From the IMG/VR virus record IMGVR_UViG_3300028920_000059, positions 21,789 through 85,788 of that record: 64,000 nt of DNA; one strand, written 5' to 3'. The notes under the pieces are model-generated. The model was not told the DNA's origin. It saw only the letters and a list, made by a program, of their open reading frames with translations, and did no database searches. This document shows positions 2,529-51,739 of the stretch, piece by piece. Origin of the DNA: a virus. The first letter of the stretch is position 1. Every line of letters begins with the position of its first letter. A program made the translations under genes and the position numbers.

Positions 2529-3529
2529 AGCGGGCACTCCTCTCCCATCTCGTCGTGGAATTTTTGATCGGCAGCTTTGGCTGCCTTTTTGAGATCCAGC
2601 CACTCAGTCGTTGCCGCTTTGACAGTCCCGATCAACTCTGCCAGCTCAACGCGATCTGCGTCAACCGCATGAATATTGAGTTGCAGGTCAACTAGCTTCT
2701 GGACATCATCCTCCGGGATCCACCGATTGGATGCAATCTCGTCCTGGCGCATTTGGTTGATTATTTTCTCCAACGCCTCCACCTGCTCGTGGATCCTCTC
2801 CCACTGGTCGCCCAGAGAGATAACCTTATGGGCCGCCTCCAGCGTCTCTCGCTGGTGCTCTTGTTGGTGGGTATGCTCGCCTAGGGTCTGGATCAGATCA
2901 GCGAGCACACGCGATTCCTCGGCGTGCTGGAGCCATTCGCCGTTGTAGACCTGGGCTAGGGACAGCTCCCCGTCGGCTTTGCGCGTCCACTTGAGCTTGG
3001 CTCGTTCCTCCTTCGCCTCCTCCAGCTGGCCGGAGAGGACCCGAGCCTCCGCCAGAGCATCACGATTGGTCTTGTCCAGCTTGGCTAGTGTTGAATCTAT
3101 AATCTCAAGATCAACGATGCGGTTCAGCTGCCGACTGACTTCGCCTGCCGTTTCGGTAAACCAGAAGGGACTATCGTGCTGGCCTTGGAAGTTGATTTCA
3201 TCCAGGTTGAGGAGCGTGGTGATATCCTCCGGTGGCTCGTTCCCGAAGGCTTTGTAAACCTCGTCGTCCAGGAAATAGTCATTTTTGGATTTGGAGCGCT
3301 GCCGAGTAATGCACCGGCCATCGACCGATAGATTGACTTCGGCTTGCTTCCCGCCGTCGCGGATGAATTCTTGGCCAGCCGGACGGTTGGTTGCAAGCCA
3401 GCGAAGCGCACGAATGACTGCGGACTTTCCTCGGTCGGAGGCACCGACGATTGACGTCACGCCTGGGTCGAGATCCAGCGCCAGCTTCTGGTGGGCTTGG
3501 AAGTTCTTGATGGTTAGCTTAGTGAACAC
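2510..3529 (-). CDS. N-terminal half of split SbcC/Rad50-like ATPase
   Basis: IKNFQAH, Walker A GASDRGKS, Q-loop NFQGQHD, coiled coil ending in the zinc-hook CPLCG; GTG start at 3529 after GGAGG. Confidence 0.88.
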   Translation of the reverse strand: MFTKLTIKNFQAHQKLALDLDPGVTSIVGASDRGKSAVIRALRWLATNRPAGQEFIRDGGKQAEVNLSVDGRCITRQRSKSKNDYFLDDEVYKAFGNEPPEDITTLLNLDEINFQGQHDSPFWFTETAGEVSRQLNRIVDLEIIDSTLAKLDKTNRDALAEARVLSGQLEEAKEERAKLKWTRKADGELSLAQVYNGEWLQHAEESRVLADLIQTLGEHTHQQEHQRETLEAAHKVISLGDQWERIHEQVEALEKIINQMRQDEIASNRWIPEDDVQKLVDLQLNIHAVDADRVELAELIGTVKAATTEWLDLKKAAKAADQKFHDEMGEECPLCGQSL

Positions 3530-4007
3530 CGAGTTGCCTCCTACCGTATTCGGCGATACAGAGAGCATCGGCCAGACCGTCGTCATCCTTGGTGGAGCGG
3601 GCCGTGCGTTTGAGGCTGACATCGGGAAACAATCGTTTGGCCACCAGAATGGCTACATCCTTGGTCCCCTTGGGCATGTCCTTGCACATGACCCGCTTCC
3701 AAGTGGTGGGGTGAACGAGGGTGTAGGGCAGGTGGAGACCTACGCATATCCCTCGAAGCAGTCCCCAGCCGGCCCCAAAGTTGAAGGCCGAGGCAATTCC
3801 TTGGCCGGGCATGGACTGGACTTTCTCGATATAGACATGTTGGATGGCGCTCCGCCGGTGCTCTAGGATTTGCCGCACGGTCACCTCGTCCACCGCTCGC
3901 TTGTTTTTGGTAACACGGAGGACCGGAAGGGGACGAACGGTTACGCCCCGTCCCCGCCGGAAGGCGATGGCTCCCTTCATGCCAGGGTCAATTCCGATGA
4001 TCATCAT
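3519..4007 (-). CDS. RuvC-like Holliday junction resolvase
   Basis: IIGIDPG, VYIEKV, SAFNFG, DGLADALCIA; ATG 4007 follows AAGGAGG. The ORF-track extension to 4115 is the repeat array. Confidence 0.9.
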   Translation of the reverse strand: MMIIGIDPGMKGAIAFRRGRGVTVRPLPVLRVTKNKRAVDEVTVRQILEHRRSAIQHVYIEKVQSMPGQGIASAFNFGAGWGLLRGICVGLHLPYTLVHPTTWKRVMCKDMPKGTKDVAILVAKRLFPDVSLKRTARSTKDDDGLADALCIAEYGRRQLGVH

Positions 4008-4026
4008 AAAGCCTCCTTGTGAAAAA

Positions 4027-4400
4027 ACCGTACCAAACCACACCTGACCGAACCCTACCTTACCCAACCGTACCGAACCTGCCAAACCAAACCTAACCCT
4101 ATCCAAGCCAACCATACCGCACCTTACCTAACCCGACCTGCCAAACCAAACCGTACCTCACCACACCGTACCCGACCGTACCTAACCAAAGCTCACCATA
4201 CCTGCCATACCTTACCAAACCTCACCCTACCCCACCATACCGGACCCAACTTCACCCCACCATACCTGCCATACCTTACCAAACCGAACCGCACCTTACC
4301 CTACCCTACCACACCGAACCTGCCAAACCCAACCGTACCTTACCGGACCCCACCGAACCGAACCGTACCTGCCAAACCCAACCAAACCACACCGCAGCCA
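4027..4400 (-). repeat. GGT-NN pentamer array segmented by GGCAGGT; putative guide-RNA array
   Basis: About 70 consecutive GGT+NN pentamers with only a few GCT/GAT/AGT variants. Plus-strand ACCTGCC delimiters start at 4077, 4136, 4200, 4264, 4318 and 4367 (spacings 59, 64, 64, 54, 49, all 5n+4). The array begins directly after the stop of 4404..4889. Confidence 0.92.
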
Positions 4401-4403
4401 AGT

Positions 4404-4889
4404 CTACAGTTGATCGATGACGTGCCAGACGGCGGCTAATTCTCTGAGGGCTGCGTATTTTGTACGACAGACTTTTAGTTCTGCTCGTGCCCGTTGGAGT
4501 ACCTGCTTTCTCCGTTTCGGATCAGCTAGGGCTTCCTCCAGGCTTACCCATTCGTTTCGCGGAGCATCTTCGTCCTCCGTCTCTGTTTCCCGCACGACGG
4601 GGGTGTATACACGAACAGGTGTATCCACCCCTTCAACTCGTACAACGATGGACCGAAGCATTTGGGCCGCTCGGATACGATAGTATTCCGTTGCCGCCTG
4701 CTCCTTATCCTTGATGTATATTTCGGGGTGGAGAGGACTGTTCTTTTTCTTGGCCTCCTGGACCAAGATGGCGGGCGTGACCCCTCCGCCGTTGGCTTTC
4801 CGTAGACGTTGGATTTCTTTGTGGGCTACCTTGGCATCAATCCTGGATTGATAACCGGCCTTCCATTCTACCTTGATGGTTTTTGCCAT
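4404..4889 (-). CDS. conserved phage protein, partner of the RAMP-like gene
   Basis: VTPAILVQEAKKKNSPLHP...AATEYYRIRAAQMLRSI; ATG 4889 with AAGGAG; lies between the RAMP-like gene and the array. Confidence 0.7.
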   Translation of the reverse strand: MAKTIKVEWKAGYQSRIDAKVAHKEIQRLRKANGGGVTPAILVQEAKKKNSPLHPEIYIKDKEQAATEYYRIRAAQMLRSIVVRVEGVDTPVRVYTPVVRETETEDEDAPRNEWVSLEEALADPKRRKQVLQRARAELKVCRTKYAALRELAAVWHVIDQL

Positions 4890-4912
4890 GGTTTTTCTCC
4901 TTGGGAAAGACG

Positions 4913-5494
4913 TCAATTGGTTTTGACCTGGAACCTTCCGTAGTCGCCTCCCTTTTGAGGACGCATCTCCAGTAAGCCCACGCCGAAACCGGCTCGGTCC
5001 AACAGGTTCACGATGTCGTCCGGGCGAAGATTTTCTGCATCGAACTCGATGCTAATGTCGCTCTCCCACCCGCTTGGAAATTCGGGACGGTATCGGAGAT
5101 CCGTTCCTCCTTGGCCAACTCGGACGCAGTCCTCCCTCATCACCGGTTCACCACATCGCATGGGGATTGTGTTGTTCGCGTCGGAGCATAGGACGAAAAG
5201 GGATTTGCGAACCAGTGTCTTTTCGATTCCGATATCCTTGTGGGCTGCGTTGATGAGGCTCTGTTTGATTGCTCCAGCGGGGATTCCGTATTGCCCGTCC
5301 TCTGTTCTATGAGTGGCCGCCTCGCACTCTTCTTCTGGGATACACACTTCACGAGTTTTGGTTTTCCTGCCCTCCTTTTTGTCTCGCATCTGCTTGCGAG
5401 CTTTCTCGGCCCAACTATGTTGGATCAAGGGAGAGGTCCCTTGGATTGTGACGCTGAGAACTTTGCGTTGGATTGGCTTTAGCTTGATGGCCAT
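4913..5494 (-). CDS. solo RAMP/Cas7-like RNA-binding protein
   Basis: N-terminal strand VTIQGTSPLI, IPAGAIKQSL (cf. IPGSSLKG of Cas7-group RAMPs), and C-terminal Gly-rich loop GFGVGLLEMRPQKGGDYGRFQV; AAAGGAG RBS. Confidence 0.72.
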   Translation of the reverse strand: MAIKLKPIQRKVLSVTIQGTSPLIQHSWAEKARKQMRDKKEGRKTKTREVCIPEEECEAATHRTEDGQYGIPAGAIKQSLINAAHKDIGIEKTLVRKSLFVLCSDANNTIPMRCGEPVMREDCVRVGQGGTDLRYRPEFPSGWESDISIEFDAENLRPDDIVNLLDRAGFGVGLLEMRPQKGGDYGRFQVKTN

Positions 5495-5558
5495 GATTGG
5501 CTCCTTTCTTGTGTCTAGGACACGCTCTTTTTATGATTACAATAACACCGACGAGATG

Positions 5559-5855
5559 TCATTGTGGTGATTGTTGTTCACGGGAACGCCTTTCCTCCAG
5601 CGCATTCAGGACGGTGGATTTGTAGTGGTCCCATCCTTCCCAATACCCAGCGTTATAGGCGTCCATGAGAGCCTTTTCCAATCGACTGGGGCGGTATAAT
5701 ATGGACCACTCCCATAGACGGTGCGGCCAGCGAAACAGGAGGTGGAGTCCTAGGTAGGTACACACCGCTTCATCCCGGACTACGTTGAACCAGCATACAC
5801 GCATGCCGGTAGGATATTTTTCGAGCGGCTTGACTGTGCGGAGTGGCCAGATCAT
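5559..5855 (-). CDS. hypothetical protein
   Basis: ORF coupled by ATGA overlap; start trimmed to MIWPLR. Confidence 0.55.
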   Translation of the reverse strand: MIWPLRTVKPLEKYPTGMRVCWFNVVRDEAVCTYLGLHLLFRWPHRLWEWSILYRPSRLEKALMDAYNAGYWEGWDHYKSTVLNALEERRSREQQSPQ

Positions 5856-6151
5856 TCCTTCAGCCCCCAGTTGTGGTGGTAACAATTCATAATTTCCAGA
5901 TCGTCTGGTCCAGCGGGTAGGCCGGCAGGTAGCTTCCCGGGTTGGCCAATTGACTTCTTGGCTTTGATATACTCAAGAGGATGAACCTTCCCTTTGGCAA
6001 TACCGGCCTCTATTATATCGCGGATCGGACCGCTAAGTTGGTCAACAAGGGAAGTCGAGTATTCAGCCAGCTTCTCATGGATGAACTGATGGTAGTTCTT
6101 CCAGCGCTTGATTTCAGTAATACTTGGATTGCGACTAATACGGTTACTCAT
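5852..6151 (-). CDS. hypothetical protein
   Basis: ORF overlapping both neighbours in the operon. Confidence 0.55.
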   Translation of the reverse strand: MSNRISRNPSITEIKRWKNYHQFIHEKLAEYSTSLVDQLSGPIRDIIEAGIAKGKVHPLEYIKAKKSIGQPGKLPAGLPAGPDDLEIMNCYHHNWGLKE

Positions 6152-7044
6152 TCTCCTCTCCTTCTCAGCTTCGGTCGCATTGTATTAAAGAAGGAGATCC
6201 ACTCCCCACGGCGCGGTTTGCGTAAGTAACTTAGGAAGCCATAACGCTCACACATGGAGAAGAAGGCATCTGGGTTGTACTCGGGTTCCCTCAGTTCAAA
6301 GGTTTTGGTCTTGAGATGGGGAAGCGCCACCAGCTTTTCGTTGCGGCTGATAATCGTCTCACCGTCGTAGCTGGTAATGGCTTTGTAGGTTTTGTAGTGA
6401 GGAGGGAGCTGGCGAGTCAGGAACTTGATTGCTGTTTTTACTCCGACTCCGGGAACGCCCGGCACGTTATCGCCCGAGCATCCTGCAATGCATTTGACGT
6501 CACGCCAGAGAGCAGGTTCAATTCCCTTCGCTTCGATAAAGCTGTCGGAATCATAGCCCTTTCTTCTTGCGGGATCGTACCAGCGAACGTAGTCGCTGAT
6601 GCACTGCCAGAGATCGCCGTCGGCAGATACGATGATTCCTTTTTCCTTATTACTAGTCAGGATGTTGGCTGCCTCTGCGATCAGGTCGTCGGATTCCAAT
6701 CCGGTTTGGCGAATGACTTGAAAGCCGATAGCTGGGAGGATCGTTCGACGTAGCAGCTTGATTTGGTCGTACATTATGCCCAGCTGCTCTTTCTCCTCGT
6801 CGGTCATATCCTTCTTACGATCTCCCTTGTAGGACGGGAGGATCCGCTTACGATAGGACTGGCGCGAGTCGAAGAACAGTACGACCTTATTGGAGTTGAT
6901 GTTGGGATCGGAGCAGATCGTACGAAGCTGTTCCCAGAATCCAAACAGGATGCCGGTATTGAAGTCATCGTAAGCCAGGTCCGCCGTAGCGTAGCGGGCG
7001 CGATGCGCGAGAAATGAAATGTCAATGAGGACCCAGGGCTTCAT
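6148..7044 (-). CDS. 5'-3' exonuclease / flap endonuclease (PolA N-terminal / T4 RNase H-like)
   Basis: LIDIS, FFDSRQSYRK..LPSYKGDR, LESDDLI, SADGDL, H3TH GCSGDNVPGVPGVGVKTA. Confidence 0.92.
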   Translation of the reverse strand: MKPWVLIDISFLAHRARYATADLAYDDFNTGILFGFWEQLRTICSDPNINSNKVVLFFDSRQSYRKRILPSYKGDRKKDMTDEEKEQLGIMYDQIKLLRRTILPAIGFQVIRQTGLESDDLIAEAANILTSNKEKGIIVSADGDLWQCISDYVRWYDPARRKGYDSDSFIEAKGIEPALWRDVKCIAGCSGDNVPGVPGVGVKTAIKFLTRQLPPHYKTYKAITSYDGETIISRNEKLVALPHLKTKTFELREPEYNPDAFFSMCERYGFLSYLRKPRRGEWISFFNTMRPKLRRRGE

Positions 7045-7049
7045 ATCTA

Positions 7050-7310
7050 TTATCGCTTGTCAGTCGATAATCCACGTTGGCAACGTGGACACTTGCAGGG
7101 AGCACACCAGCGCAGCTTGTCCACGGCCTCGTTGATAAGACAGGCACTAAAGACATGACGTGCGGTATCCTCACGCTCGTGAGGCTCATATGCCCAACCG
7201 TATGCCGTCGTGACAATAATGTAGCCATTCTCGTCGCCGGTGTAGTCATCGTCGCACCAGTTCTCAATTCTTTTCTTGAGATACTTGGGCATGTAACGGG
7301 GTATCGGCAT
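7050..7310 (-). CDS. hypothetical protein with C-terminal CxCxxC
   Basis: MPIPRYMPK start, TAATG-coupled to the upstream gene. Confidence 0.55.
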   Translation of the reverse strand: MPIPRYMPKYLKKRIENWCDDDYTGDENGYIIVTTAYGWAYEPHEREDTARHVFSACLINEAVDKLRWCAPCKCPRCQRGLSTDKR

Positions 7311-7582
7311 TACGCATCTCCTTGTAGCTTGGCCAAGGCTGCACGGGCGAATCGTTCGCATTTAGCATAGCCAGGGCCGTCGGGGTCGGTGATCATTTCC
7401 AGCGCATGGACAACGTCCGCGATGGCCTCGGGATTAAGACCGGCAAGAGCGTTGACGCAGGCGACGATGCGCGCAGAGTCCTTCGTTGACGTTGTCTGAG
7501 CTAGTGGCGACCCGCCTACGGTACTCCATATAGCGTGGCGGTTATCGTACCACGGCTCCGGTGTGTGCTGTGTCTCTGTCAT
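7310..7582 (-). CDS. hypothetical phage protein (cassette-like)
   Basis: MTETQHTPEPW...ARIVACVNA; preceded by a hairpin and an ACCACCACACAAGGAG leader. Confidence 0.7.
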   Translation of the reverse strand: MTETQHTPEPWYDNRHAIWSTVGGSPLAQTTSTKDSARIVACVNALAGLNPEAIADVVHALEMITDPDGPGYAKCERFARAALAKLQGDA

Positions 7583-12442: not shown

Positions 12443-13771
12443 TTATCCAGACGCCTCCTCGCACTCATCCCAGTACGGGCAGTCGTCGCACTCGTCGTGC
12501 TCGTCGAGGTCCTTTCCGAACGTACCGTTGGCAGGGCACTTGGGCGTCTTGGGCTTGCTACCCTTCTTGGTGCTGCCCTTCTTGGTGCTACCCTTCTTGG
12601 TGCTACCCTTCTTGGTGCTGCCCTTCTTGGTGCTGCCCTTCTTGGTGCTGCCCTTTTTCTTCTTGGGCGGCTCGGGCTCCTGTTCATCGTCATCTTCGTC
12701 ATCAGGGTCGGGGATTTGCTTTTTGCCCGTGCCGTTGCAGGGCTTGCACTTCTTGCCCTTGCTGCTTTTGCCCGTTCCCCCGCAGGCGATGCAGACGTTA
12801 GGATCGGGCTTCTCGTCGTCCTCGTCATCATCGTCATCATCGTCGTCCTCGTCATCATCGTCATCATCGTCGTCCTCGTCATCATCGTCGTCCTCGTCGT
12901 CCTCGTCGTCCTCGTCATCATCGTCGTCCTCGTCGTCCTCGTCATCATCGTCATCATCGTCGTTGTCGTCGTTGTCGTCGTTGTCGTCGTCCTCCGGCTC
13001 GGGATCCTTCTTCTCCTCTTCCTCTTCCTCGTCGTCGTCCTCGGGATCCTTCTCGTCCTCTTGCAGGAACATGACGTTGAGCTTGTTGTAGTCCATAACC
13101 TGCAGCGACTCCTCCAAGCAGACAACCTTTTCCAAGATATCGTCCTCGTCCAGCTCGTCACGCTTCTTGAAGTCGATCTTGGTGGCCTTGAGGAACTTTC
13201 TACCGTTGAAGGATTCCTCGCTGAAGCGCACGCGAAGGGTTCGGCCCTCCTTATTGACATCGAAGAAGGCCAGGTGCTCCTCGTTATCGGGATCCTTCAG
13301 CTCATCCTCCAGAGTCGCAGCGAACTTACCGCGGCTCATCACGAAGAGACAGATGCGCTCATCGTTCTCGGGATCCAGTACGTTATAGGCAACGTACCGC
13401 TGGGCGCGTAGCTCTCGGGTAAGCTCCTCATTCTTGTCCGCATCTTCCTTGAAGAGGCGATTGCGCTCCTCGCAGATCGGGCACTTCTTGCCGATGCTCT
13501 GCGGACAGACGACGCTATCGGAGTTGGCACCGATACCGTGGTGGACGGCGAACGGGAACTTGTACCAGAGGACTCCCTTCTCGATGTCGTCGGGGTGCGT
13601 CTTGGACTTCACCTCATACGGCACGATATTGATAGAGAATCGACCGGCCTTTTCCGGTACCCACTGGCCAACCTCCTCGGGGAGATCAAACCAGCTACTA
13701 CCTCCTCCCGATCCTCGGGCGGCGTTATCCCGGACTTTTTCCCGGGAGGCTCGTTTACGCTTGCGACTCAT
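12443..13771 (-). CDS. gp32-like single-stranded DNA-binding protein with acidic tract, Zn finger and KKGST repeats
   Basis: N-terminal domain HHGIG...CP..IGKKCPICE; long D/E tract; CxxCxGxG twice; (KKGST)6; sits between recA and a UvsY-like gene. Confidence 0.75.
   Translation of the reverse strand: MSRKRKRASREKVRDNAARGSGGGSSWFDLPEEVGQWVPEKAGRFSINIVPYEVKSKTHPDDIEKGVLWYKFPFAVHHGIGANSDSVVCPQSIGKKCPICEERNRLFKEDADKNEELTRELRAQRYVAYNVLDPENDERICLFVMSRGKFAATLEDELKDPDNEEHLAFFDVNKEGRTLRVRFSEESFNGRKFLKATKIDFKKRDELDEDDILEKVVCLEESLQVMDYNKLNVMFLQEDEKDPEDDDEEEEEEKKDPEPEDDDNDDNDDNDDDDDDDEDDEDDDDDEDDEDDEDDDDDEDDDDDDDDEDDDDDDDDEDDEKPDPNVCIACGGTGKSSKGKKCKPCNGTGKKQIPDPDDEDDDEQEPEPPKKKKGSTKKGSTKKGSTKKGSTKKGSTKKGSTKKGSKPKTPKCPANGTFGKDLDEHDECDDCPYWDECEEASG
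12556..12660. repeat. 15-bp tandem repeat encoding KKGST
   Basis: About 7 copies of CCCTTCTTGGTGCT(G/A). Confidence 0.9.
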
Positions 13772-40488: not shown

Positions 40489-41994
40489 TTGAACACTCGC
40501 CCATCCCCCAAGTTGGTGACCAACGAGACAGCAACCCTGGAATCGACCTTCCAGCGTCTGACGTTCAACCTCAAGGCCGAAAAAGCTTCCGTCCGCCACG
40601 ACAACATGCAGGGGCGGGATTTTCTCGTGGTGCCGGCGGTCATGATGACCGAGGGTGTGCACCGCGGCAGCGCCGGCCCCCTCTACTACCCTGCCGAAGA
40701 GCTTGCCCGCTCCGCCGAGGTGTGGAACAGCAAGCCGGTCGTTGTGTACCACCCCGAGCGCAACGGCGCCCCCATCTCCGCCAACGACCCCGACATCCTC
40801 ACCAAGTACAAGGTCGGTGAGCTGCTCAAGACCCGGTGGGAAGACAACAAACTGAAAACCGAGTGCTGGCTGGAGGAAAGCCGGATCCGGGACGTGGATG
40901 ATCGGGTTCTCAACGCCCTGGATGAAGGCACGATCATGGAAGTGTCCACCGGGCTTCTTGTCGATCAGGACACTACCAGCGGCGAGTGGAACGGTGAGGC
41001 CTACGACGGCATCGCCCGCAACCACCGCCCCGACCACTTCGCCCTGCTCCCCGACAAGGAAGGCGCCTGCAGCGTCGCCGACGGAGCGGGCCTGCTGCGC
41101 AACGCCCTATCTACCCTCAACGAGAACGGGCCTGAAGCCCGCTGGGCCGCCCATGCTGCTGTCCTGCTCAACGAACTCAGCCATAGTGAAATTTGGCAAA
41201 AGCTCAACGCCAAGATTTCTGACGAGGCTTGGGTGGAGCAGGTGTACGACGAGTTTTTCGTGTACCACCAGAATGACAAGCTTTGGTATCAGATGTACAC
41301 CATCAAAGACGACGACGAAATCACCCTCGATGGCGTCCGCCAGGAGGCTACTGAAGTCCGGTACTGGAAACTGCCGGACGGAACCATGGTGGGGAATACG
41401 GCCCCCGCCAACCTCACCAACAATTCCGTGAAGGAGAATACCATGGACCGAGACGAAGTCATCGCCGGCATCATCGGCAACGACAAGCTCCCGTGGAGCG
41501 AGGAACAACGCGAGGTGCTCAACGGCATGACCGACGATCAGCTCAAGTTCCTGGCGGCCAACGGCGAGGAGCCCGAGACCCCGGAGCCCGAGACCCCGGA
41601 GCCGGAGCCGGAGCCCGAGACCCCGGCCGAGGAGAAGCCCACCGACAACCAGTCGGTCGAAGAGTTCATCGCCAACGCCCCCGAGGGCATCCGCGATATG
41701 CTCACCGCTGGCCTGACCGCGCACAATGCGGAGAAGAACGGGCTGGTGGGGAAGGTGCTGGCCAACAAGCGCAACACCTTCACCAAGGAGCAGCTCAACG
41801 AGAAGGGCCTGGACGAGCTGAAGGCCCTCGCGGTCCTCGCTACCGACCCGGAGCCGGAGACCCCGGTCGGATCGCCGCGCAAGATCCTCAACTTCGCCGG
41901 GCAGGCTGAGCCGGCCAAGCCGGTGGTCAACGCCGGCGAGGAAGAGCCGCTGTCGACGCCCTGCGTCGTGAACCAGGAGACCGAAGACAAGTAA
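40489..41994 (+). CDS. prohead protease (DUF2213-like) with C-terminal scaffold
   Basis: PVVVYHP, EVSTG, PDHFALLP..GACS..DG.G; internal in-frame AAGGAG-ATG at 41443. Confidence 0.8.
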   Translation: MNTRPSPKLVTNETATLESTFQRLTFNLKAEKASVRHDNMQGRDFLVVPAVMMTEGVHRGSAGPLYYPAEELARSAEVWNSKPVVVYHPERNGAPISANDPDILTKYKVGELLKTRWEDNKLKTECWLEESRIRDVDDRVLNALDEGTIMEVSTGLLVDQDTTSGEWNGEAYDGIARNHRPDHFALLPDKEGACSVADGAGLLRNALSTLNENGPEARWAAHAAVLLNELSHSEIWQKLNAKISDEAWVEQVYDEFFVYHQNDKLWYQMYTIKDDDEITLDGVRQEATEVRYWKLPDGTMVGNTAPANLTNNSVKENTMDRDEVIAGIIGNDKLPWSEEQREVLNGMTDDQLKFLAANGEEPETPEPETPEPEPEPETPAEEKPTDNQSVEEFIANAPEGIRDMLTAGLTAHNAEKNGLVGKVLANKRNTFTKEQLNEKGLDELKALAVLATDPEPETPVGSPRKILNFAGQAEPAKPVVNAGEEEPLSTPCVVNQETEDK

Positions 41995-49681: not shown

Positions 49682-51739
49682 ATGGCAAATGGTTTCCCCG
49701 GCACCCTCCGTGCCGCTAAGACTCCCGATCAGGACAAGGTGACTTTTACCGCCGCGGTGGATTTACAGGCCGCGGCGTCCGATGGTAGCGCGGGAAGCCT
49801 GCGCCGGTTCAAGCTGGACGCCTATAACGGCGGCCCGATGAATTTCCTTTGGTCCGAGGCTCCCGTCGTGGTGGACTTGGCCGGACTCAAGGCCGACAAG
49901 CAGCAGAGGCCAATCCTGCGCGACCATGATATGTCCGCGATTGTCGGCCATTCCGAGAAAATCACGAATACCGGCACGTCCCTTGTGATCGAGGGTGTCG
50001 TTTCCGGTGGTGGAGATGCCGCCGCCGCCGTGGTTGCCTCTGCCGACAATGGTTTCCCGTGGGAGGCCAGCATCGGGACCACGATCGAGGGCATCACCGA
50101 GATCAGGGCCGGCGAGACCGCCGAGGTGAATGGCCGCACGATGCCAGGCCCCCTCACCATTGTATCCAAATCCTCACTTCGTGAGACTTCTTTCGTACCC
50201 TTGGGCGCCGACGACACAACCGCCGCGCGTCTGGTGGCTAATCGTCAGCACAAGCAGAAGGAACCCAAAATGAACCCCGAGTTTATCAAGTGGCTCAAGG
50301 AAAACGACTTCGATCCCAAGGCGGTCGAGGCGAACGACAGGCAGAAGGCCAAGCTGGAGGCCCAGTGGAAGTCCGAGACCGAGGAGCCGGCCCAGCCGGA
50401 CCCCGATGTGCCGGACCCCGATGTGCCGGACCCCGTGGCCGACCTGACCGCTCGCGCCGCCCTGGAGGCTGAGCGTATCGCCATGGTTCAGCGGGAGACC
50501 AAGGACCACCCGGAGCTGACCGCCAAGGCCATCTCCGAAAAGTGGGACGAAAACCGGGTGAAGCTCGAGGCCCTGCGCGCCGACCGCAACGTGAACATCA
50601 ACACGGGCGCCGGCACCGACCCGAGCATCACCAACCAGGTGCTCGAAGCGGCGCTTTGCACCGCCATCAAGATGCCCGAGCCGGAAAAGCACTTCGATGA
50701 GCGCACCCTGGACGCCGTCCACAAGCGGTACCGCCAGCCGATCAGCCTGCAAGAGCTGATTATGGAGGCGGCGCTTGCGAATGGCTACGTGGGCGCTCGC
50801 AGCTTCCGCCAGGACCCCCGCGGCATCATGCGGGCGGCCTTTGGCCTGGAGGCCGGGTTCAGCACCATCGACATCTCCGGAATCCTCGGCAACACCGCCA
50901 ACAAGTCGCTCCTCGAGGGCTTCAACGGTGTCGAGAGTGGGTGGCGCACCATCACGGCCATCAAGCCGGTAAACAACTTCCACACGCACACCCGGTACCG
51001 CCTGACCGGCGACCTCAAGTACGAGAAGGTCGCGGCTGGCGGCGAAATCCCGCACGGCGACGTCGCCGAGCTGAGCTATACCAACAAGGCGGACACCTAC
51101 GCCCGAATGATGGCTATTAGCCGGCACGACATTATCAACGACGACCTCGGCGCGCTGGACGAAATCCCGCGCAAGCTGGGCCGCGGTGCCGCCTTGCAGC
51201 TCAATACCGTGTTTTGGACGGAGTTCCTTGCCGACGCTGGCACGTTCTACACGTCCGGCCGTGGCAACTACAACACCGGCGCCGGTTCTGCCCTCGGTAG
51301 TGCTGGCCTCGGCGCTGCGATCACCGACTTCCGTGACCAGACCGACGCGGATAGCAACCCCCTGGGCGTCGAGCCGCGTATCATCGTGGTCCCGCCGGCC
51401 CTGGAGGCTACCCTGCTCGAGCTGATCCGGTCCGTGACCGTCAACACCGGCGGCAGCGCGACGACTACGCAGGTCCCGAACGCCAACATCTATGCCGGAC
51501 GGTTCGTGCCCGTCGTCTCGTCCTACCTGACGAGCGACAGCGCGACCGCCTGGTACCTGCTGGCCGACCCGCGCGACCTGGCGATGATCGAGACCGTATT
51601 CCTCAACGGCCAGGAGACCCCGGTGGTGGAGACGGCCGATGCCGACTTCAACGTCCTCGGCATCCAGTTCCGCGGCTATCACGACTTCGGCGTGAACAAG
51701 CAGGAATACCGGGCCGCCGTCAAGAACGCTGGCGCCTAA
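49682..51739 (+). CDS. prohead protease - major capsid protein 2 fusion (Mu gpT-like capsid domain)
   Basis: N-terminal AYNGG, ILRDHD...VGH, FPWEASIG, ETSFV.LGAD; C-terminal ISRHDIINDDLGA, AWYLLADP, FLNGQETP, DFGV. Confidence 0.88.
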   Translation: MANGFPGTLRAAKTPDQDKVTFTAAVDLQAAASDGSAGSLRRFKLDAYNGGPMNFLWSEAPVVVDLAGLKADKQQRPILRDHDMSAIVGHSEKITNTGTSLVIEGVVSGGGDAAAAVVASADNGFPWEASIGTTIEGITEIRAGETAEVNGRTMPGPLTIVSKSSLRETSFVPLGADDTTAARLVANRQHKQKEPKMNPEFIKWLKENDFDPKAVEANDRQKAKLEAQWKSETEEPAQPDPDVPDPDVPDPVADLTARAALEAERIAMVQRETKDHPELTAKAISEKWDENRVKLEALRADRNVNINTGAGTDPSITNQVLEAALCTAIKMPEPEKHFDERTLDAVHKRYRQPISLQELIMEAALANGYVGARSFRQDPRGIMRAAFGLEAGFSTIDISGILGNTANKSLLEGFNGVESGWRTITAIKPVNNFHTHTRYRLTGDLKYEKVAAGGEIPHGDVAELSYTNKADTYARMMAISRHDIINDDLGALDEIPRKLGRGAALQLNTVFWTEFLADAGTFYTSGRGNYNTGAGSALGSAGLGAAITDFRDQTDADSNPLGVEPRIIVVPPALEATLLELIRSVTVNTGGSATTTQVPNANIYAGRFVPVVSSYLTSDSATAWYLLADPRDLAMIETVFLNGQETPVVETADADFNVLGIQFRGYHDFGVNKQEYRAAVKNAGA

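Follow-up and report, generated by a model that had tools for sequence, protein, structure and literature searches.

A 64,000-nucleotide (nt) stretch of viral DNA (hereafter the window: bases 21789-85788 of the 85,788-bp IMG/VR virus record IMGVR_UViG_3300028920_000059) carries a compact unit consisting of a gene for a 193-amino-acid (aa) protein, a gene for a 161-aa partner protein and a 369-nt periodic tract. This locus is very probably a VIPR (Viral Interference Programmable Repeat) system whose vrRNA array is staggered. A VIPR system, found mostly in phages, combines a single RAMP protein, Vipr, with an accessory gene (vap) and with vrRNAs that each have 9-16 YNNGG units (bioRxiv 10.64898/2026.04.26.720920 and 10.64898/2026.04.26.720927). 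According to the same two preprints, one Vipr protomer binds each unit, the GGY bases are flipped, the NN bases pair with double-stranded DNA (dsDNA) with every third target base skipped, and the outcome is the transcriptional silencing of rival mobile elements. The VIPR preprints also include 10.64898/2026.10.15.759431 and 10.64898/2026.10.21.760802.

Since VIPR was first described in these 2026 preprints, the locus is a clear new example and not a new class. The initial annotation of the window, which had pointed to VIPR and proposed a possible new member, is supported by the homology of the 193-aa protein to SUSP1 Vipr, by an array that falls within the published definition of vrRNAs (at least four tandem YNNGG/GGYNN units beside the gene) and by the linkage of such arrays to homologs. 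VIPR itself came to light only months ago, as an RNA-guided means of silencing DNA that uses a gapped code and has been proposed to be older than CRISPR. The present locus adds little to that concept; it provides a compact and readable staggered array, with seven blocks in 369 nt, and it highlights GGCAG as a candidate distinct end signal, a candidate three-unit handle, and a guide that appears to spell a conserved catalytic motif of the recombination nuclease of a rival phage family. Such systems are also recognizable by a reader from raw sequence.

The 193-aa protein is a homolog of SUSP1 Vipr

The first gene of the unit, vipr (5494..4913, minus strand), starts with ATG after the ribosome-binding site (RBS) AAAGGAG. 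By sequence comparison, its 193-aa product is a homolog of the structurally solved SUSP1 Vipr. When the single sequence was searched against all PDB sequences, the sole match below E 0.01 was 36pp, "SUSP1 Vipr protein" (phmmer E 0.0042, residues 11-190 against 2-187). A profile built from an alignment of the protein with 29 homologs (30 sequences; A1) also matched 36pp alone in the PDB, with an E value of 5.6e-11, and hhalign aligned A1 with the SUSP1 protein agp039 (NC_028808) over 167 columns (probability 97.8%, E 9.2e-13). Neither the sequence nor the profile matched any Cas7, Csm3 or Cmr4 chain in the PDB, even up to E 10.

The residues that contact the repeat in SUSP1 could be mapped onto the 193-aa protein. 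The GGY-binding residues H17, R138 and R179 correspond to H26, R136 and R178, all of which are invariant in A1, and D177 corresponds to E176, which is nearly invariant across A1. Four of the five residues of the GGY pocket are therefore retained, one of them with a D to E change. The three landmarks pointed out in the initial annotation, GTSPL, IPAGAIK and the Gly-rich C-terminal loop GFGVG...RPQKGGDYGRF, are all readable in the protein, and hhalign places IPAGAIK on the helix-1 segment that makes up the pyrimidine pocket of SUSP1 Vipr. The accompanying "Cas7-group" label has to be dropped, since Vipr, though related to Cas7, is described as forming its own clade of RAMPs, distinct from Cas5, Cas6 and Cas7 (10.64898/2026.04.26.720920).

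The family is large and lacks functional names. Pfam has no family for the 193-aa protein, which belongs to phrog_4652 (E 2e-29), and the PHROG families of both proteins of the unit are annotated as function unknown. Among 672 candidates scored in the 90% clusters, 576 were relatives at E <= 1e-3, none with a functional name; among the 50% representatives, the relatives numbered 3261 at E <= 1e-3 and 1725 at E <= 1e-10.

The periodic tract is divided into blocks by one-nucleotide overlaps

The array (4393..4025, minus strand; 369 nt) begins 10 nt past the stop codon of the 161-aa gene. The initial annotation had given it about 375 nt and a boundary at 4027, figures that hold to within a few bases. 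Read in register, the tract comprises 75 units: 65 GGT-NN, six GGC-AG and four degenerate ones (GCT twice, AGT and GAT), so that GGY units account for 71 of the 75. The NN positions use 15 of the 16 possible dinucleotides. A GGY is followed by another GGY at +5 in 61 instances, whereas 2000 shuffled versions of this sequence gave 3.0 on average and 11 at most.

GGC is confined to the six terminal units, GGCAG, and all remaining intact units are GGT. At each of the six GGCAG|GT junctions, a single G both ends GGCAG and opens the following GGT, which shifts the phase by -1. The junctions delimit seven blocks (B1 to B7, all on the minus strand) with 5, 10, 11, 13, 13, 12 and 11 units, respectively, and the five internal blocks, with 10-13 units, lie within the published vrRNA range of 9-16. 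B1 (4369..4393) has five units and a GGCAG end, and might be a short first vrRNA or a leader. B2 (4320..4369; 10 units, GGCAG end) has one G in common with each of its neighbors, and is followed by B3 (4266..4320; 11 units, GGCAG end), B4 (4202..4266; 13 units, one of them the degenerate AGTTG, GGCAG end) and B5 (4138..4202; 13 units, one of them the degenerate GCTTT, GGCAG end). B6 (4079..4138) has 12 units, two of them degenerate, and a GGCAG end; its units 1-9 correspond to YLHQMAFYR codons, as described below. B7 (4025..4079) consists of 11 GGT-NN units without a GGCAG end, and continues into GGTTTTTTC, 15 nt short of the RuvC start codon.

The last three units are common pairwise to adjacent blocks, and no guide recurs among the 568 blocks of 106 related loci. 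No second array (runs of at least five units) was found on either strand of the whole 85.8-kb genome. The only other pentamer run, at 50432..50388, is a coding 15-nt perfect tandem repeat of 2.7 copies that was picked up by accident, and is not an array.

GGY-NN arrays accompany the homologs on the same strand

The initial annotation had proposed to check whether GGY-NN arrays lie near homologs of the 193-aa protein. We scanned for runs of at least five GG[CT]NN units, tolerating one bad unit in a row. In the best 80 of the 169 confirmed IMG/VR relatives, runs occurred on the strand of the gene at 72 loci and on the opposite strand at one. Six of the eight loci without strict runs have same-strand GNY-NN runs, and the other two stop within 80 nt of the partner gene. 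The species genomes of GTDB gave same-strand runs at 21 of 21 loci and opposite-strand runs at none of the 21. In addition, a homolog was found in 34 phage records (27 Mycobacterium, five Gordonia, one cyanophage and one Pseudomonas), and all five of these that were inspected have same-strand runs beside the gene, most of which end in GGCAG with a 1-nt overlap.

The finer structure recurs as well. Successive runs are by far most often spaced by -1: there are 218 such junctions, in 56 of the 80 IMG/VR loci, against 11 for the next commonest spacing. The terminal unit in the relatives is GGCAG (C in 100%, A in 98% and G in 100%), whereas the other units have C in 65-72%, and the modal length of the internal blocks is 11 units. 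Taken together, the array of the window is, by sequence, a typical member among its relatives, and GGCAG looks like a signal in its own right.

At the related locus L016:4610-7268 (IMGVR_UViG_3300037606_000121), 33 blocks with 322 GGY-NN units in total form a staggered array of 2.6 kb, inside which the partner gene lies. Four relatives (L013:4648-5061, L053:5224-5666, L055:2877-3304 and L076:5203-5340) carry G-N-Y instead of G-G-Y units, which fit the non-canonical repeats mentioned in the VIPR preprints. Staggered GGC-NN arrays adjoin the Vipr homolog in the three actinophage records that were opened (L001, L002 and L005); in one of them, Mycobacterium phage Quico (NC_028751; L002:2108-2324), the array lies beside the cro/antirepressor region.

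The partner gene is a putative accessory gene

The partner gene (4889..4404, minus strand; ATG start, RBS AAGGAG) lies 23 nt after vipr and encodes 161 aa. A homolog of it adjoins vipr at 54 of the 80 IMG/VR loci and 12 of the 21 GTDB loci (tblastn), and the order vipr-partner-array, as in the window, is the commonest one (35 of the 80 IMG/VR loci). The protein belongs to phrog_15946 (E 7e-16). It had no Pfam match, either as a single sequence or across 16 aligned members, its profile matched nothing in the PDB below E 0.4, and its look-alikes in the ESM Atlas were viral hypothetical clusters only. From its position and its conservation within the clade, we regard the partner as a putative vap-like accessory gene.

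Comparison with known systems

Seven VIPR types have been named, and the legend of fig. S18 in 10.64898/2026.04.26.720920 defines "staggered arrays" as vrRNAs overlapping by 1 nt. The present locus resembles that form in its lone Vipr gene, its small putative accessory gene, its GGY-NN units and its 1-nt vrRNA overlap (here GGCA|G), as well as in being phage-borne and without a CRISPR array. This likeness is drawn from the main text and the fig. S18 legend; here, the guide units are all GGT, with GGC in the terminal unit only. Confirmation by small-RNA sequencing is stated in that main text for the ribozyme-interspersed and the single-vrRNA forms, and not for staggered arrays.

The phage SUSP1 (NC_028808) encodes agp039 (195 aa) and agp038 (146 aa), with a long gap containing GGY-NN tracts on either side of the pair. 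This type II system shares with the present locus a homologous Vipr and the order of vipr, accessory gene (a putative one here) and downstream vrRNAs on one strand. It differs in that the Vipr identity is only about 24%, and that its vrRNAs are separate units that have individual upstream sequences and end in a conserved pseudoknot tail, whereas the blocks here abut without a tail. The partner protein and the residue at SUSP1 W178 also differ, as discussed below.

Closer Vipr homologs are found in actinophages (36-42% identical; Mycobacterium phages Quico, Florinda, Saal and others, and Gordonia phages ODay and Pipp) and in Cyanophage Cy-LDV1 (33% identical), all of them annotated as "hypothetical protein". 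Like the window, these phages have same-strand staggered arrays ending in GGCAG, and ODay and Pipp have a homolog of the partner. Unlike in the window, their arrays are rich in GGC and are often situated upstream of vipr, close to the temperate-phage immunity region.

The initial annotation had likened the protein to Cas7. Class 1 Cas7/Csm3 and Vipr (as the preprints describe it) are both RAMP proteins that polymerize along guide RNA at a constant step, flipping some of its bases; the Vipr step is 5 nt instead of 6, with three guide bases flipped and one target base skipped. The gapped recognition of nucleic acid proposed in that annotation would, going by the published Vipr target, be directed at dsDNA, with one skipped base per NN. 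In its claim that the window lacks cas genes and a CRISPR array, two parts were confirmed: there is no Pfam match to Cas1 or Cas2 across the whole genome (85.8 kb), where cas5, cas6 and cas10 were not searched separately, and there are no CRISPR-like direct repeats within the window.

One guide may be aimed at a family of nuclease genes

Target patterns were made by replacing each GGY with one wildcard, according to the rule of 10.64898/2026.04.26.720920, and large collections were searched with exact patterns only. Neither in the phage's own genome nor in 615 kb of related loci did any guide match better than shuffled guides.

Units 1-9 of B6 (18 bases) had 15 matches in IMG/VR, against one for the pattern read backwards, and 20 matches in GTDB, against four. 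In eight of the 15 IMG/VR matches and seven of the 20 GTDB matches, the pattern is wobble-aligned on the codons for YLHQMAFYR (once YLHQIAFYR). The genes concerned encode DUF3799 / PD-(D/E)XK nucleases of 270-330 aa (Pfam E 8e-32; phrog_412, exonuclease VIII), which are mutually 46-52% identical and lie on contigs of 42-69% G+C. The nuclease gene is flanked by genes for a sigma factor and a Sak4-like annealing protein, an early module of proviruses. The phage itself has no DUF3799-type nuclease. The seven GTDB genomes with a B6 nuclease match comprise six Planctomycetota and one Lentisphaeria, and in 301 Planctomycetota genomes the B6 pattern was found at eight places with at most one mismatch, as compared with one place for the control. 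The last three units of B6 (TT TT AG) do not fit the nuclease targets (0-2 of 6).

B6 is thus a candidate guide, and a fairly likely one judging from these alignments, against the catalytic YLHQMAFYR motif of ExoVIII-like (DUF3799) nucleases of temperate phages, chiefly in Planctomycetota. If this is true, one guide could silence a whole diverged temperate-phage family of Planctomycetota, and guide and target would be the first VIPR-target pair to be predicted for that phylum. The two closest GTDB homologs of the Vipr protein are in metagenome-assembled genomes (MAGs) of Phycisphaerae (62%) and Pirellulaceae (56%). As a separate observation, two Planctomycetota MAG contigs (L182 and L186) and an IMG/VR provirus (L164) share a conserved provirus early module of sigma factor, DUF3799 nuclease, Sak4-like annealing protein and helicase.

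With seeds of eight units (16 bases), B7 had 11 matches in 10 families and B2 had 18 matches in nine, all in unrelated sequences; we take these to be chance matches and used them as a yardstick. Units 1-8 of B3 fit, in frame, the NEAFLLTE codons of a T4-like family B DNA polymerase in 16 of 18 matches (36-38% G+C; L087-L104); this candidate was rejected as being at chance level, as 16-base seeds match several families by chance, the polymerase is one family among three and no other guide matches that 151-kb phage. The 10-unit patterns of B4 and B5 had no exact match in IMG/VR, and that of B5 had none in the metagenome collection. Units 1-10 of B4 had one exact, in-frame match (20/20) in a 166-aa open reading frame (ORF) of the unannotated 2.9-kb metagenome contig OGWN01001042.1 (L221:766-794). 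About one such match is expected by chance and the ORFs of the contig have no PHROG match, so it was set aside, as were two places that B4 matched with two mismatches in 201 Planctomycetota genomes, about the number expected by chance.

Evidence against the assignment, and alternative explanations

Several observations weigh against the assignment to VIPR or against the target proposed for B6. The RAMP fold of the 193-aa protein (RRM core, glycine-rich loop and thumb) is inferred solely from its full-length homology to the solved Vipr. Its residue corresponding to W178, which stacks on G2 in SUSP1 and is W in most relatives, is M177. The partner has no similarity to SUSP1 vap1, the one vap with which it was compared (hhalign probability 0.1%). 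The array is irregular, with its four degenerate units, its five-unit B1 and a B7 without GGCAG. As for the targets, there is a candidate for only one of the six guides, the other five being at chance level, and the 16-base patterns gave 3 to 10 unrelated chance families, so that the 18-base in-frame B6 family is suggestive and not decisive. In the published VIPR cases, a system directs its guides at a single element; here, the other guides did not converge on the elements matched by B6 (five provirus/virus records, 169 kb in total, and ten further loci). Moreover, 13 of the 20 GTDB matches of B6 fall outside the nuclease family, against four control matches, revealing an uneven, pattern-specific background. 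Planctomycetota may be the hosts of the phage too, a proposal based on MAG bins; a search of five of the candidate genomes for the portal protein of the phage found no match.

Among the alternatives, the one that survives best is that the locus is truly VIPR but is in decay or inactive here, with all target matches due to chance; we consider it unlikely. The irregular array, the M in place of the stacking W, and the five of six guides without a significant match would all fit decay. Conversely, both ORFs are intact with RBSs, and all 32 positions that are invariant in A1 are kept, by construction in that the 193-aa protein is itself a member of the alignment. In addition, internal degeneracy of vrRNAs is frequent and about half of the published vrRNAs have no identifiable target (10.64898/2026.04.26.720920), and the excess of B6 matches over the backwards control, 15 to 1 in IMG/VR and 20 to 4 in GTDB, argues against chance.

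It is very unlikely that the tract acts as DNA, as iterons, an origin or a G-rich structural or recombination signal, or that it is a hidden coding repeat. The tract is G-rich on one strand, and part of it is covered by a longer minus-strand ORF (4115..3519) that reads through into the downstream resolvase gene. However, a DNA site would need no fixed orientation, whereas the runs almost never lie on the strand opposite to the gene (1 of 80 and 0 of 21 loci), and the units combine a constant GGY with highly variable NN positions. A tract of the same kind in SUSP1 was shown to be RNA (10.64898/2026.04.26.720920). The read-through ORF is, by sequence, spurious, because the match to the resolvase profile already begins at residue 2 of the shorter form (163 aa), whose start codon has a good RBS before it.

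The least probable alternative, a class 1 CRISPR-Cas remnant in which an orphan Cas7/Csm3-type subunit, left behind by the loss of its CRISPR array and the other cas genes, lies next to unrelated pentameric simple sequence, could appeal to the RAMP-like landmarks of the protein and to the relationship between Vipr and Cas7 (10.64898/2026.04.26.720920), but is contradicted by Vipr being the only solved relative, by the lack of Cas1/Cas2 matches and CRISPR-like repeats, and by a tract that travels with the gene on its strand (72 of 80 and 21 of 21 loci).

A model for the expression and action of the locus

For the VIPR system with a staggered array, which we thus favor, the published mechanism suggests how the locus would operate. 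The vipr-partner-array operon would be transcribed from upstream of vipr, and the array RNA would yield about six vrRNAs of 10-13 units each. One Vipr protomer would occupy each unit, flipping out GGU and displaying NN; the NN bases of the filament would pair with dsDNA, passing over one target base in three, and would thereby keep genes of rival phages or prophages from being transcribed.

Sequence features around the operon were examined for signals. A promoter-like site (5562..5533, minus strand: ATGACA, 18 nt, TG-AATCAT) lies in the 64-nt gap upstream of vipr. Within 3400..7400 no second such site was found; this count of one is not above that in shuffles (mean 3.1), and only the position of the site speaks, weakly, for it. 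Between this site and the vipr RBS is a perfect palindrome, GTGTC-CTA-GACAC (5523..5511), a possible candidate operator. On the minus strand, no terminator-like site was found between vipr and the resolvase gene, and therefore the array is probably part of a longer transcript, out of which its RNA would be cut. An Rfam search at E values up to 1 found nothing in 3400..6200, with no hammerhead or other known RNA between the blocks.

Two further steps are our own proposals. The 4-nt step at GGCA|G breaks the 5-nt register, so that each block might nucleate its own filament and leave the junction exposed. The last three units of each block may form a non-pairing 3' handle, which is suggested by the mismatch of the last three units of B6 with its targets together with the pairwise sharing of these units between adjacent blocks. 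We are less sure of the register break, the handle and the B6 target than of the VIPR assignment. The combined proposal, that a staggered guide is the first n-3 units of its block, that the last three units with their invariant GGCAG end are a handle replacing the SUSP1 pseudoknot tail, that B6 is written against YLHQMAFYR, and that the partner represents an accessory class unrelated to vap1, is tentative, and we would give it somewhat less than an even chance.

Genomic context

As the initial annotation stated, the unit lies between an exonuclease gene and ruvC, with two ORFs followed by the periodic tract, entirely on the minus strand of the window. On the downstream side, a RuvC-like resolvase gene (4010..3519, minus strand; phrog_1770, E 2e-35) starts 15 nt beyond the end of the array. 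Upstream of vipr, two small ORFs separate it from a 5'-3' exonuclease gene (7044..6148, minus strand; Pfam 5_3_exonuc_N, E 3e-23).

The record has a CheckV completeness of 100%, and its genes include those for a terminase, a portal protein, Mu-F, a family A polymerase, helicases and a RecA-like protein; no tRNA genes were found in the phage, which is lytic-looking. Its terminase relatives are distant (39% identity, Croceibacter phage). The only sequencing run with the full locus is a marine-sediment metagenome, which may be the source of this uncultured phage; no RNA run was found to cover 3500..6200. Elsewhere in the window, long ORFs contain coding tandem repeats with units of 15, 9 and 27 nt (12541-13059 and 41566-41634), which are unrelated to the array.

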